DNA of 64,000 bases from Octopus sinensis (lineage: Eukaryota). A program made the translations under genes and the position numbers. The notes under the pieces are model-generated. The model had not been told where the DNA came from and did not search any database. It saw only the letters and a list, made by a program, of their open reading frames with translations. Every line of letters starts with the position of its first letter. Position 1 is the stretch's first letter. The stretch lies in NCBI RefSeq assembly GCF_006345805.1, contig NC_043002.1:18352001-18416000 (forward strand), read 5' to 3'. Below are positions 1 to 55,664 of the stretch, in pieces.

Positions 1-368
1 ATATATATATATATATATATGTATGTATGTATATATATATATGTATATATGTATATATATATATATATATATATATATGTATGTATATATATATATGTGC
101 GTGTATATATATATGTACATATATACATATATGTATATATATATGTGTGTGTGTGTGTGTGTGTGTGTATATATATATATATATATATATATATATATAT
201 ATACACACACACAAAAACTGTCTGATGAACGGCAACGAGAAACTCAGAGTAACAGATTTTGTTGAATTTTCTGCTGCTTAAAATAAAGTATATATAATAT
301 ATATATATATATATATATATATATATATATATATATATATATATATATATATATATATATATATATAT
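1..368. repeat. (TA)n/(TG)n microsatellite tracts flanking a short unique insert (212-290)
   Basis: Direct reading; source of the spurious YI/CV-rich ORFs. Confidence 0.95.
214..260 (+). ncRNA. Minimal type-I hammerhead ribozyme motif (PLE/retrozyme type), stem II base degenerate
   Basis: CTGT-CTGATGA-ACG GCAA CGA-GAAA-CTC A GAG-TA^ACAG: stem I CTGT/ACAG, near-palindromic stem III, GUA triplet. Confidence 0.75.
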
Positions 369-706
369 CTGTTAATGAATGCAAACTAGCCTCCGGGAAA
401 CGTTTAACATTTCAAAAGAATGTGTTGTATTGCATTAGATGTGGTCTCAGCGTTAGAGATTTTTAATGAGATGGCAACCATTTATCTAATTAGAGTGCGT
501 GCATCAACGGTAGGCCAAGAGCAATGCGTTCAGACAGTTTTGTGTCTTGTCAAAATCAAATCATTGCAATACATTACCAATTATGGAATGAATTATTCGA
601 CTCATGGCCGCCATCATGAATTTGTGTGAAATCGAAGAAAAATCGATTGCTGACTTGTGAATGTATAATCAAAGTTATGCAATTAGGAATGAGTAATTAA
701 GAAATT

Positions 707-1070
707 AGATAGATAGATAGATAGATAGATAGATAGATAGACAGACAGACAGACAGACAGACAGACAGACAGACAGACAGACGGACGGACGGATGGATGG
801 ATGGGTGTGTGGATGGATGGATGGATGGATGGATGGATGGACGAATGGACAAACATAGATAGATAAATAGATAGATAGATAGATAGATAGATAGATAGAT
901 AGATAAATAGATAGATAGATAGATAGATAGATAGATAGATAGATAGATAGATAGATAGATAGATAGACAGACAGACAGATAAATAGATTAGATAGATAGA
1001 TAGATAGATAGATAGATAGATAGATAGATAGATAGATAGATAGATAGATAGATAGATAGATAGATAGATA
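707..1070. repeat. (GATA)n/(GACA)n/(GGAT)n compound microsatellite
   Basis: Direct reading. Confidence 0.95.
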
Positions 1071-1671
1071 CGCTTTCTAGATCAGAAGGCACATACCCAT
1101 GGTGCCACTTACCCAAAAACACTGACGATGAAGCCACATGTTTACAAAGTGAGCTGCTAACCCCCCATTACATTTAACAGAGTTTTGATTTCTACCAGAT
1201 CAAACAATTTCGGCGCGTTATGTCGTTTGTTAAAATACATTTTGGCTTTTGTACCGATTTCTTGCGATTTAAATTCAAATCGCACCTCTGCTTTCAACCA
1301 TTTGGGGTCTAACAAAAAGGACCAATTCAAAGCGGTGGATTGGCAGAAATATTACAACGCTGGAGATGATGCCTTGTGGTGTTTATTCCGGCTCCTTTAA
1401 TTCAATGGTGACCTGCAAAACACATTCCTAGAATCCAGTAAAACGAAATTTAGAAGTCACTCTTAATCTTAACCTTTGCCTTGCAAAACTTCACACGCAT
1501 ACGCACGCATACACATACCTACTTTCACACATACATACATCTTTTATCTTTTACTTGTTTCAGTCATTGGACTGCTACAGAACCTTCTCGAAGGTTTTAG
1601 TCGAACAAATCAATCCCAGAAGTTATATTATTTTTAACATTTGATAGATGTTTGTCCTCATCTTGTTTGTT

Positions 1672-1718
1672 GTTAAAACGTTTCGGCTGACATACCCTCC
1701 AGCCTTCATAAGTGTCTT
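1672..1718 (-). ncRNA. Degenerate hammerhead motif (left-arm copy)
   Basis: rc: GACAC-TTATGA-A-GGCTG..CAGCC-GAAACGTT. Confidence 0.55.
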
Positions 1719-1990
1719 GAGTAAATTTCGAACCTGGTTTCACATTCCTATGGTATTTTTCGATGTTATTGTTGTTATTATTATTATTATTATTATTATT
1801 ATTATTATTATTATTATTATTATTATTGAGTGAGAGAGCAGTGCATATTATTATTATTATTATTCAGGTCACTGCCTGGAATCGAACTCGGAACCTTGGG
1901 GTTAGTAGCTCGCGCTCTTAACCACTACTCCATATGCCCGTGGGCATATGGCGTAGTGGTAATGAGAATCCAGATTCGAAATTTCCCCCA

Positions 1991-2040
1991 AGATACCTGA
2001 AGAAGGATGGAGGGTATATCAGCCGAAACGTTGTGTGTTA
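1991..2040 (+). ncRNA. Type-I hammerhead motif (right-arm copy)
   Basis: GATAC-CTGAAGA-A-GGATG..CAGCC-GAAACGTT^GTGT; palindromic stem III; the other arm restores stem II to GGCTG/CAGCC. Confidence 0.7.
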
Positions 2041-52097: not shown

Positions 52098-52507
52098 ACT
52101 CTTTTACTCTTTTACTTGTTTCAGTCATTTGACTGCGGCCATGCTGGAGCACCGCCTTTAGTCGAGCAAATCGACCCCGGGACTTATTCTTTGGAAGCCC
52201 AGTACTTATTCTATCGGTCTCTTTTGCCGAACCGCTAAGTGACGTGAACGTAAACACACCATCATCGGTTGCCAAGCAATGCTAGGGGGACAAACACAGA
52301 CACACAAACATATACACACACACTTATATATATATACATATATACGACAGGCTTCTTTCAGTTTCCGTCTGCCAAATCCACTCACAAGGCATTGGTCGGC
52401 CCGGGGCTATAGCAGAAGACACCTGCCCAAGATGCCACGCAGTGGGACTGAACCCGGAACCATGTGGTTGGTTAGCAAGCTACTTACTACACAGCCACTC
52501 CTGCGCC
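52098..52507 (-). mobile_element. Family-B SINE
   Basis: Matches the 4920 copy. Confidence 0.9.
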
Positions 52508-53420
52508 TATGTATGTATACATTGTCACGAAACGAGATGGTGTTAGATTAACAGCGGAAAATACTAATTCGAAGAAAGGGCGAGGGAATGAATTCTATGT
52601 CCTTTGTGCTGAAAACTCAGTTGTGAGCGTAATTTGTGAGTTAAAAGTTGAAAACGGCCATATAAGAATATTAAAGAAATGAAAACATAGTTAATGATTC
52701 TAAGCCTACTTAAGTGGTCGTAAAGAATAACGAATATGTTCATAAACCAGTTAATATGAACGTAAAGAAAAAGGTTTGTGCTTGCAAATATATCAATACA
52801 TTAAATATTAATATACTAAGGATATTAATATACGAAGTATATTAATATCTTGCGAAGTTGTTTAAAAGAAACTACAGATGTGACAAAAAAGAGAAGACCC
52901 CTGCATTCAATTTTTGATAAACGTTTGAAGAGCAAACACTTTATACACCGACCAAAACAATAACGTAACTGAAAAATTAAACATAAAGCATTAGTTTCAT
53001 AAAGCCACCGTTACCACCAGCTTCGCTCTCCAAGTACCACACTAGAAGCTGTGTAAAATAGAGGTTTTCCACTATAATCTGTATGTTTAAAGACTGGCGC
53101 TATTCTGTAGCTTATCTATAAAAGGTGAAGCGCAAAAGTATGATGAAATTACATATATAATTACACTTTATATGAAAGCCATCAATGTATAATTAAATAA
53201 TTAGACAAGAGAGAATGCAGTTGTAAACAAACCTCGTAGAACCTAAGTGAACCGTTTCTCTTCGGAGTGGATTTAAAATTAAGGGGGTAATTATTTTTAA
53301 GTGAAAGGATAATTGGATTATTCAGTGACTGAGTCGAATTGTAAACAAGGCTGGAATGGCCGGGAGGCGAAAAGAGGCAGCATCTCCCTTTCTGTCGATT
53401 TTAGAAAGACAAGTGTAAGT

Positions 53421-53973
53421 ATTGGGTTGCCGATTTATAGTAGCTTACCTTTCGACTTATTTTAGAACATGGTTGAGTCCATAAAATAGGATTTGACTAC
53501 ACCTCCATTTAGAGTGCAGTTTAAGCTACCTTTTTGTGGAAGAATGTTTATGTTCCTATAACCTGTGTTAATTCTGTAACCCTTTAAAATGGAAAATAAG
53601 AAAGTTCATTTTCGGCGCTTGATGCTTTGGTAACCAGACAAAAATTGCTGCAGCTCGGCTGGGATGTGTTACTAAACTCTCTATTTTCACAAGATTTTGC
53701 TGCTTCAGATTTCCACTTATTCAGGTCTCTGCAGAATAGTCTTAATGGTAAAAAGTTCAATTCTTTCGATGACGTAAAAAGATACCTTGATGAATTCTTT
53801 GCCATGAAGCCACGTCAATTATGGGAAGAGGGTATTTTCAAGTTAAAGGAAAGATGGAGACACATTGTGCAACAAAATGATTCATATTTGGTTGATAAAA
53901 AATGTAATGGCAAGTATTTATTGATCTCTTTCTTTCCTTTAAAAATCGGCACGAACTTTCCGGACAACCCAAT
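53421..53973 (+). mobile_element. Internally deleted mariner with both TIRs
   Basis: TATTGGGTTG.. / ..CAACCCAATA; QLGWDVL..DFAASDFHLFRSLQNSL..GIFKLKERW. Confidence 0.85.
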
Positions 53974-54767
53974 AGAAATAAACTCCATTCGTATAGAACT
54001 TCCTTTCCTATAAAGATTGATATAAATGTGAATAATTAAACTATGTTATTAGAAGAAAATTTTGTACAGGTTTAGTTATAAAGTAGATAGATACATACAT
54101 ACATACATACATACAAACATAAATACACACATACATACACACATACATACATACATACATACATTCATACATACATACATACATCCACACATACATACAT
54201 ACATACATACATACATACATACATACATACATACATACATACATACATACATACATACATACATAGAAAATTGATGTATGAAGATCAGAAAAAAATTCCA
54301 CAGTAAATAAGAGCTCAACAACAGGTCGTTAAACTCTACGTTATTACTTGGCAGTAAATCCAAGAGCGGCCATTTGCATCTGTGTACTTAATCGGCTTAA
54401 ATGATCTTTATCAGTAACATATATACATACATGCGCGCTCGCGCACACACACACACACACACACATATTTAAATAAATGTATATGTATATAAACATAGAG
54501 AAAGCAAAAAGTAAATACAAATCGCAAAAGTACAAGAGATGTTCACAATTAAAATTAATGAGTCGAAGCTCAAAGAAAAGACTGAGTAAAAATTGTACAG
54601 TAACAGTTATAATTTTTATACTAAAGGAAAGTCCAGAAGCGAAGAAGAAAGGGGATAGGCAAACAGAGCCAATAGGAAACGCACGTGAGTTACATTTACA
54701 TGTTTGCCCTTTAACTCCATATATATAGAGAGAGTAGTCACCATATTTCATTCCATATTGGCTGTCT

Positions 54768-54867
54768 CTGATGAGTGTAGAGTTACATAATCTGATTGCT
54801 ACCTAACACTTTTTTATACTCCTAGCGCAAACCTGATTGGCAAGATTAGATATATAATACTGTACAC
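54768..54867 (+). ncRNA. Half hammerhead: CTGATGA followed by a long hairpin, GAAA side missing
   Basis: GTGTA/TACAC, ATCTGAT/ATTAGAT and TGCTA/TGGCA nested pairs; abuts (TG)n. Confidence 0.35.
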
Positions 54868-55664
54868 CTCTGATAATATGTGTGTGTGTGTGTGTGTGTG
54901 TGTGTGTGTATGTGTGTGTTTGTGTGTGTGTCTGTGGTGTGTGTGTGGTGTGTGTGTGTATGTGTGTGTGTGTGTGCGTGTGTGTGTGTGTATACGTGTG
55001 TATTTTATGTATTTCTGATAAATGTGCTATGTTTGATATAGAAATCAAGATTCACCAACTGAAATTCAAGTTTCAGTGTAGCTTATGGTAAATTAATATA
55101 AGAGACTCGACAAATGGTCTGGTTAAATATTAAGCTTTGAGATATAGTAAGTTAAGTTATAGTAAGAAATCTTTATACATTACGGTTTTAAAGGGATGCC
55201 TATAAATGGATTGGAGATGTGAGAGAAATGAGATAAAAGAAGTAGGCAAAATAAGAACATTAAGAATAACAAAAATACATACTTTCCTCTACAGCTCTTC
55301 CAGGACGAGACTTGTCTTCTAGGCAGTAGTTTCCGGTTCGAAATTTCTGGAATCACCGTTGACACTGGCTTACGCTTATTGTCCGATCCTCATGTACTGC
55401 ATTTCTCCCACTTTCCGTTGCGTTGTTGCCTTTATTGAACTCATAAAGAAAAATATGCCGAATATGCACCTTTGTCACTTCCATTATAGCTTTCAAAAAT
55501 AAATGTTAAAGTCGAACTGCACTCTTCAAAACTTGCACTAAGAATAAGTAAAAGGGAAATTTTCTGCCTGCTTTTATAACAAGTTGATTCAGGCAAATTA
55601 TCCTTTCCCCCTCCGATTTTAGTTCATACAATTAAAAAGACCGCATCACTTATGGGATGACCCA

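Follow-up and report, generated by a model that had tools for sequence, protein, structure and literature searches.

Hammerhead ribozymes in truncated Penelope-like elements (PLEs) are known biology, described in 2014 by Cervera and de la Pena (PMC4209133) as type I motifs with a short palindromic helix III, an extra nucleotide after position 9 and a U3-A8 core variant, found mostly as single motifs from truncated PLEs, with opposite-strand pairs 100-700 bp apart and many families per genome. Recently active Penelope families have also been reported from an octopus (PMC13282606), in a paper whose main text does not contain the word 'ribozyme'. Here we analyse a 64,000-nucleotide stretch of the Octopus sinensis genome (NC_043002.1, positions 18,352,001 to 18,416,000; hereafter the window), in which 15 sites had been listed as candidate hammerheads. 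We conclude, at a probability of about 85%, that the motifs are minimal type-I hammerheads in the 3' pseudo-long terminal repeats (pseudo-LTRs) of 5'-truncated copies of several PLE families, linked to PLE open reading frames (ORFs) in four of eight families and likely so in the rest, and that the copies were likely inserted by the elements' own reverse transcriptase (RT)/GIY-YIG proteins, mostly at (TA)n. The octopus motifs share the features of the 2014 description but differ in that some families have A at position 11.1 or a helix II of 50-100 nt, and one family carries a tRNA-like head that has no counterpart in the PMC4209133 text examined. The instance described here is new, and the tRNA-headed, TTTT-poor family is its unexpected part.

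The genome spans 2.72 Gb, and the window is 35% GC with 97 tandem-repeat rows; its repeats resembling short interspersed elements (SINEs) are similar to octopod ones. Twelve of the 15 listed sites fall in eight dispersed repeat families of type-I minimal hammerhead anatomy (Table 1), which we name by site position. Seven window copies retain an intact core and helices I-III (214, 1991, 9643, 25835, 25986, 34313 and 34639), and five have a damaged core in a hammerhead-bearing family (1672, 8616, 13833, 51289 and 50752). The original prediction of about 15 type-I hammerheads from at least eight families therefore stands for these twelve sites, while two others fall away: 54768 has a core half only, with no match among the fetched loci, and 55298 is a mariner HTH_48 fragment (E 2.7e-13). 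Site 49675 is a single copy without helix I, and its sole genome match is itself. First-look genome searches returned candidate matches, which are not copy numbers, in very different amounts: 1632 for 1991, 976 for 50752, 975 for 9643, 848 for 25986, 405 for 34313, 237 for 214, 108 for 8616 and 28 for 13833. Identity to the column majority ranges from 99.9% (25986) and 99.8% (214) down to 87% (8616).

All eight families share PLE insertion anatomy, with 5' ends that are ragged, many inverted partners and a 3' end that is either short or tailed, and all place the same hammerhead topology at the same element position. The tail, whose optional presence in PLE copies is described in PMC11167929, occurs in 11/24, 8/23, 6/24 and 3/14 copies of four families. 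Five fold-back loci were found as predicted (1672/1991, 8616, 9643, 13833 and 25835/25986), whereas 34313/34639 is a direct 326-nt tandem instead; its repeat unit includes the flanking microsatellite, which fits local duplication. In family 214 (L032-L055) the outer edge of helix I is the starting point of 12 of 23 copies, so that units of ~78 nt result, some of which lie between (TA)n tracts. Published PLE work suggests how such copies would form: a PLE protein would nick AT-rich DNA, reverse transcription would begin downstream of the hammerhead, at either of two sites, and copies would end up short or inverted when synthesis stopped early or the cDNA folded back. With so short and palindromic a helix III, cleavage would require a dimer or the help of a protein.

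The firmest link to a coding element comes from locus L131, where two 628-nt direct repeats (99.5% alike) containing the 214 hammerhead surround a frameshifted RT and endonuclease ORF with RWK, DKT, CxCX5C, CxxC and CxH motifs, given as Hydra-clade marks by Craig et al. 2021 (PMC8557442). These sequence features make 214 the pseudo-LTR of a nearly complete PLE of the Hydra clade, resembling that clade also in its C-terminal endonuclease, hammerhead and (TA)n targets; it differs in a unit of ~3.4 kb versus generally under 3 kb, and its placement is by motifs rather than a tree. The four Hydra-like frames had no Pfam match. Frames for RT and GIY-YIG (the latter with Pfam E 1e-5) and a CX2-5CxxC linker lie next to family 25986, which has (TA)n ends, all as in the Neptune clade, but no full-length copy was recovered. 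Family 25986 appears to be Neptune-like, with Nematis the alternative label; 13833 also appears Neptune-like, and 1672/1991 appears to be a Penelope/Poseidon-like family. Our clade names (Hydra, Neptune, Penelope/Poseidon) follow motifs, those in PMC8557442 among them. Within 1.5 kb upstream, a sense-strand PLE protein was found for 9/24 copies of 214, 6/23 of 25986 (4 strong, 2 weak), 3/29 of 1991 and, weakly, 1/24 of 13833. The 628-nt repeats of L131 and a tandem junction in L293 both fit the direct repeats that partial tandems of PLEs give as pseudo-LTRs. The two PLE RT fossils noticed earlier possibly correspond to the two broken fragments in Table 1; a search of the window with a Poseidon-like profile turned up no fossil (best E 0.28), and Pfam gave nothing relevant on eight window fragments, so that the PLE-like look of a region near 50.3 kb, judged by eye, was not confirmed.

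Column majorities fit the hammerhead core (C3-G8 or U3-A8, GAAA) and helices I-III in most families, and across 23 copies of 34313 the proposed fold pairs 97% of cells versus 27-44% for slid partners. Family 9643 (L205-L218) contains U3-A8, U3-G8 and C3-G8 cores, possibly a stepwise path of core covariation. Could the motifs nevertheless be chance matches in AT-rich repeat DNA? The expectation that they would exceed shuffled sequence was borne out only weakly by a first descriptor (5 matches in the window versus 1.6 +/- 1.3, maximum 5, in 30 shuffles), and clearly only by a second one tuned after the motifs had been seen (4 versus 0.1 in 100 shuffles). The failure of 54768 and 55298 also favours chance, as does Rfam, in which hammerheads were absent among the 150 of 234 window matches listed and none reached the gathering score in 20 genome loci. 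Chance would have to produce eight families keeping one topology at one element position, however, and two of them pass the second descriptor in 24/24 and 23/23 copies, so we regard it as very improbable.

Several results weigh against the assignment to PLE pseudo-LTRs. Families 34313 (0/23) and 50752 (0/14) show no ORF link over the same 1.5 kb, and 8616 and 9643 show weak ones only (1/14 each), so the predicted connection of each family to PLEs holds for 214, 25986, 1991 and 13833, is weak for 8616 and 9643, and is missing for the other two. The family samples comprise 14-29 top-scoring loci each rather than random copies. The 34313 alignment contains 0 two-sided pair changes, with a score not above shuffles, and a non-canonical A9C core is common to 13/24 copies of 13833 (L107-L130). 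Judging from these copies, a subfamily whose ribozyme is likely impaired has spread; cleavage is reported not to have been needed for insertion in vitro (PMC11167929), which would allow such spread.

Target preference distinguishes the families. In the window a microsatellite tract lies within 250 nt downstream of 11 of the 15 sites versus 23% background (p 5e-5, although site pairs are not independent), in agreement with the earlier claim for most sites. Genome copies have a microsatellite at this distance in 23/24 cases for 214, 23/23 for 25986, 13/14 for 9643, 17/23 for 34313, 16/24 for 13833, 9/14 for 8616 and 6/14 for 50752, with controls of 21-45% for these seven families. The 1991 family is not docked (1/29 versus 26% control), and the Hydra-like and Neptune-like families have (TA)n at their 3' ends, which the Poseidon-like family lacks. 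A cysteine linker has been tied to (TA)n targeting in PLEs (PMC8557442), and the docking pattern by family fits that link. At locus L090 a 34313 copy has a family-214 copy inserted where it ends in (AT)n, which suggests nested target use. Overall, the envisaged combination of PLE machinery, minimal dimer-type hammerheads and microsatellite targets is supported.

The original prediction went further and proposed a retrozyme system, in which diverse non-coding ribozyme retroelements, independent of PLE ORFs, target or generate much of the simple-repeat DNA. Such a system would accommodate the four families without a firm ORF link, the 34313/34639 tandem dimer and the minimal family-214 units between (TA)n tracts, and non-LTR retrozymes have been proposed to derive from pseudo-LTRs (10.64898/2026.07.22.740005). 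Yet the short copies do not differ from the terminal part of the ORF-bearing element, 5' ends are ragged, and the 34313 unit spans its microsatellite. Rather than non-coding tandem arrays, we found dispersed ends of ORF-bearing elements in four families and one tandem dimer. Since four of eight families are ORF-linked and all eight have PLE anatomy, a separate non-coding system is not needed, and we consider it improbable. The simple-repeat claim was also overstated, as 12 of the 48 window arrays abut a family end and 36 have no such neighbour (one further automatic flag was a SINE and was dropped), and the most abundant family, 1991, is the undocked one. Nothing here shows microsatellites to be a product of the elements.

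The unexpected feature of the 1991 family is its pseudo-LTR, which runs from the ORF end through a stretch of ~35 nt, a head of 74 nt, an (AAT)n run, an AUG and the hammerhead to the tail. Most of 30 loci selected by their ORF have the ORF end, head and hammerhead in one continuous stretch, and in L293 the tail runs into the ORF at a tandem junction, where the reading frame stays open across the hammerhead. We rejected a start without AUG, because 33/51 arms have an AUG in frame, 34 nt ahead of the hammerhead core. Poseidon PAc of Anolis (Frangione et al. 2024, PMC11167929) is alike in the overlap of hammerhead and ORF start, the optional tail and the lack of microsatellite docking, but differs from 1991 in the position of this AUG and in the tRNA-like head and (AAT)n upstream of it. 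Of 22 tRNA sequences compared, tRNA-Arg(TCT) of this genome gives the best alignment with the head (z 9.7), scoring 59.5 versus at most 48 for other SINE-like heads found, and the column majority of the head has A and B boxes. The head has no match in Rfam, falling below threshold, and ARAGORN called no tRNA in 10 loci. Head-selected loci have the hammerhead downstream in 22/29 cases, with no other SINE body in the 80 nt inspected at these 29; a metagenome scan gave distant relatives only (5 loci). A search of literature listings and openly readable passages (with Repbase, Dfam and supplements outside its scope) found no published PLE with a tRNA-derived head. The nearest parallels are the TRIMp3 elements Cassandra, Helenus and Ajax (PMC10886601), with a small-RNA-derived RNA polymerase III (pol III) promoter inside the terminal repeat, and schistosome hammerhead SINE-like repeats (PMC6765202), which combine a pol III promoter with a hammerhead; both are non-coding, whereas the 1991 head sits in a protein-coding PLE.

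Copies of this family tend to begin at the head. Among arms reaching the head start, 17/20 and 24/31 end at most 10 nt upstream of it. A short palindrome lies at the head start and many junctions are palindromic inversions; given this palindrome and the like hot spot at the 214 helix I (12/23), cDNA fold-back explains the 5' hot spot as well as a transcript start does. Short 1991 copies were also considered as a separate non-autonomous SINE with a LINE-type tail and target duplications, a reading we rejected because the head is part of the ORF-bearing PLE and the ends and inversions are PLE-type. Two nearby sequence features deserve mention. In L153 a TATA-like word at ~1740-1775 shares bases with the stop codon of the ORF, ~30 nt before the head, and may be chance in AT-rich DNA. 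At ~1985-1992 of the window, a pyrimidine tract with a final AG borders helix I on its 5' side, the place at which the Drosophila virilis Penelope intron ends (PMC4209133); splicing there would argue for pol II.

A pol III element should be without TTTT, a prediction set before counting. Six of seven partial 1991 copies lack it, and 17 longer copies (2482 columns) have no TTTT site common to more than two copies; the lack of a shared TTTT run over ~2.45 kb of sense strand has P ~0.01-0.03, and L293 has 0 versus 4.3 expected (P 0.01). Controls are richer, with 49 in 3.3 kb for the Hydra-like L131, 10 per ~2 kb for Neptune-like sequence and 19 in 6.4 kb of other A-rich frames. Codon-aware nulls give no significance for single frames (P 0.17-0.5), TTTT is also scarce in Neptune ORF pieces (1 per 600-700 nt), and two other frames have 0 in 864 and 687 nt. 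Furthermore, the copies derive from roughly one master, making the count one evolutionary sample. At the level of sequence, the lack of TTTT is suggestive of pol III transcription.

What the head does can be read in different ways. It may be a passenger, a tRNA or SINE fragment that was retroposed with its (AAT)n tail into the 3' untranslated region of a master PLE that kept pol II, short copies starting there through the fold-back palindrome. The (AAT)n following the head like a retroposon tail, the many palindromic inversions at junctions, the similar hot spot of family 214 and the description of PLE pseudo-LTRs as promoter-holding (PMC6765202) incline us slightly to this reading. It leaves the lack of TTTT unexplained, and 17/31 head-selected arms reach at most 5 nt upstream of the head, a figure tempered by a query that began 3 nt upstream and by some arms being inverted partners. 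Alternatively, the head could be a working pol III promoter for short SINE-like RNAs (head, (AAT)n, hammerhead and tail) and possibly, in tandem copies, for the whole downstream element. The tRNA-Arg(TCT)-like head with A and B boxes, the concentration of arm ends at the head start and the scarcity of TTTT relative to TTTT-rich controls would all suit such a promoter. Set against it are the palindrome, which can produce the hot spot by fold-back, the 214 hot spot that exists without any head, the non-significant codon-aware nulls with similarly TTTT-poor Neptune pieces and other frames, the single master that allows a single test, and the silence of Rfam and ARAGORN. Uncapped pol III RNA would also translate poorly. 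We hold a working pol III promoter to be rather unlikely. More doubtful still is its fullest form, in which a protein-coding Penelope/Poseidon element would have taken up, within its pseudo-LTR, a pol III promoter of tRNA-Arg origin and shed the pol III terminators all along its sense strand; its transcription by pol III would give both the full-length RNA, with the hammerhead in the first codons, and over a thousand SINE-like short copies, making the autonomous element and its SINE one unit.

Table 1. Hammerhead-related and PLE-derived features of the window
Feature	Position	Strand	Remark
Minimal hammerhead and short 3' end, Hydra-clade PLE pseudo-LTR	214..288	+	Between (TA)n tracts
Inverted arm, Poseidon-like family	1623..1746	-	Damaged hammerhead core (site 1672)
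tRNA-Arg-like head, A and B boxes	1866..1939	-	Part of Poseidon-like pseudo-LTR
Poseidon-like pseudo-LTR: start codon region, hammerhead, 3' end	1961..2126	+	Core at 1997
Old fold-back copy (site 8616)	8446..8900		Fold-back by eye
Site 8616 hammerhead, damaged core	8619-8752	-	Helix II ~100 nt; core half ~8750
Fold-back copy, site 9643	9416..9782		U3-A8 hammerhead 9644-9679 (+)
Fold-back copy, Neptune-like family	13615..14254		Hammerhead 13835-13874 (-), A9C core
PLE RT fragment, broken	20610..20850	-	phmmer E 2e-4
Fold-back, young Neptune-like family	25775..26110		U3-A8 hammerheads 25835-25872 (-) and 25986-26023 (+)
Two truncated copies, direct 326-nt tandem	34079..34772	-	Hammerheads 34314-34391 and 34640-34717, long bulged helix II
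PLE RT fragment, broken	47889..48192	+	phmmer E 3e-7
Hammerhead-like core and helix III, without helix I	49677..49719	-	Single copy, candidate
Old family copy, U3-A8 type hammerhead	50752..50997	+	Window copy C3.A8; ends at (TA)n
Diverged relative of 13833 family, damaged core	51130..51331	-	Ends at same (TA)n as 50752 copy

Further repeats accompany these features. Another 50752-family tail occupies 63400-63709 and ends at (TA)n. Fold-back repeats also lie at 19559-19898, which has matches in other genome loci, 40710-40996 and 41343-41632, with no hammerhead established in them. Broken fragments at 31340-31982 (-), 41982-42506 (-), 53600-54013 (+), 55233-55532 (-) and 62338-63112 (-) resemble what we take to be LTR-retroelement integrase, a non-LTR C-terminus, mariner transposases and a zinc-knuckle ORF1.

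Families 214 and 25986 provide a young, near-identical set of PLE hammerheads (99.8-99.9%), which is useful but expected, and the families together indicate that clade predicts target choice within one genome. Were pol III to transcribe the 1991 family, which can be tested with a 300-nt fragment, this would be a protein-coding retrotransposon run by pol III; it would raise the matter of how uncapped RNA gets translated and would reveal a way for a PLE to give rise to a SINE.

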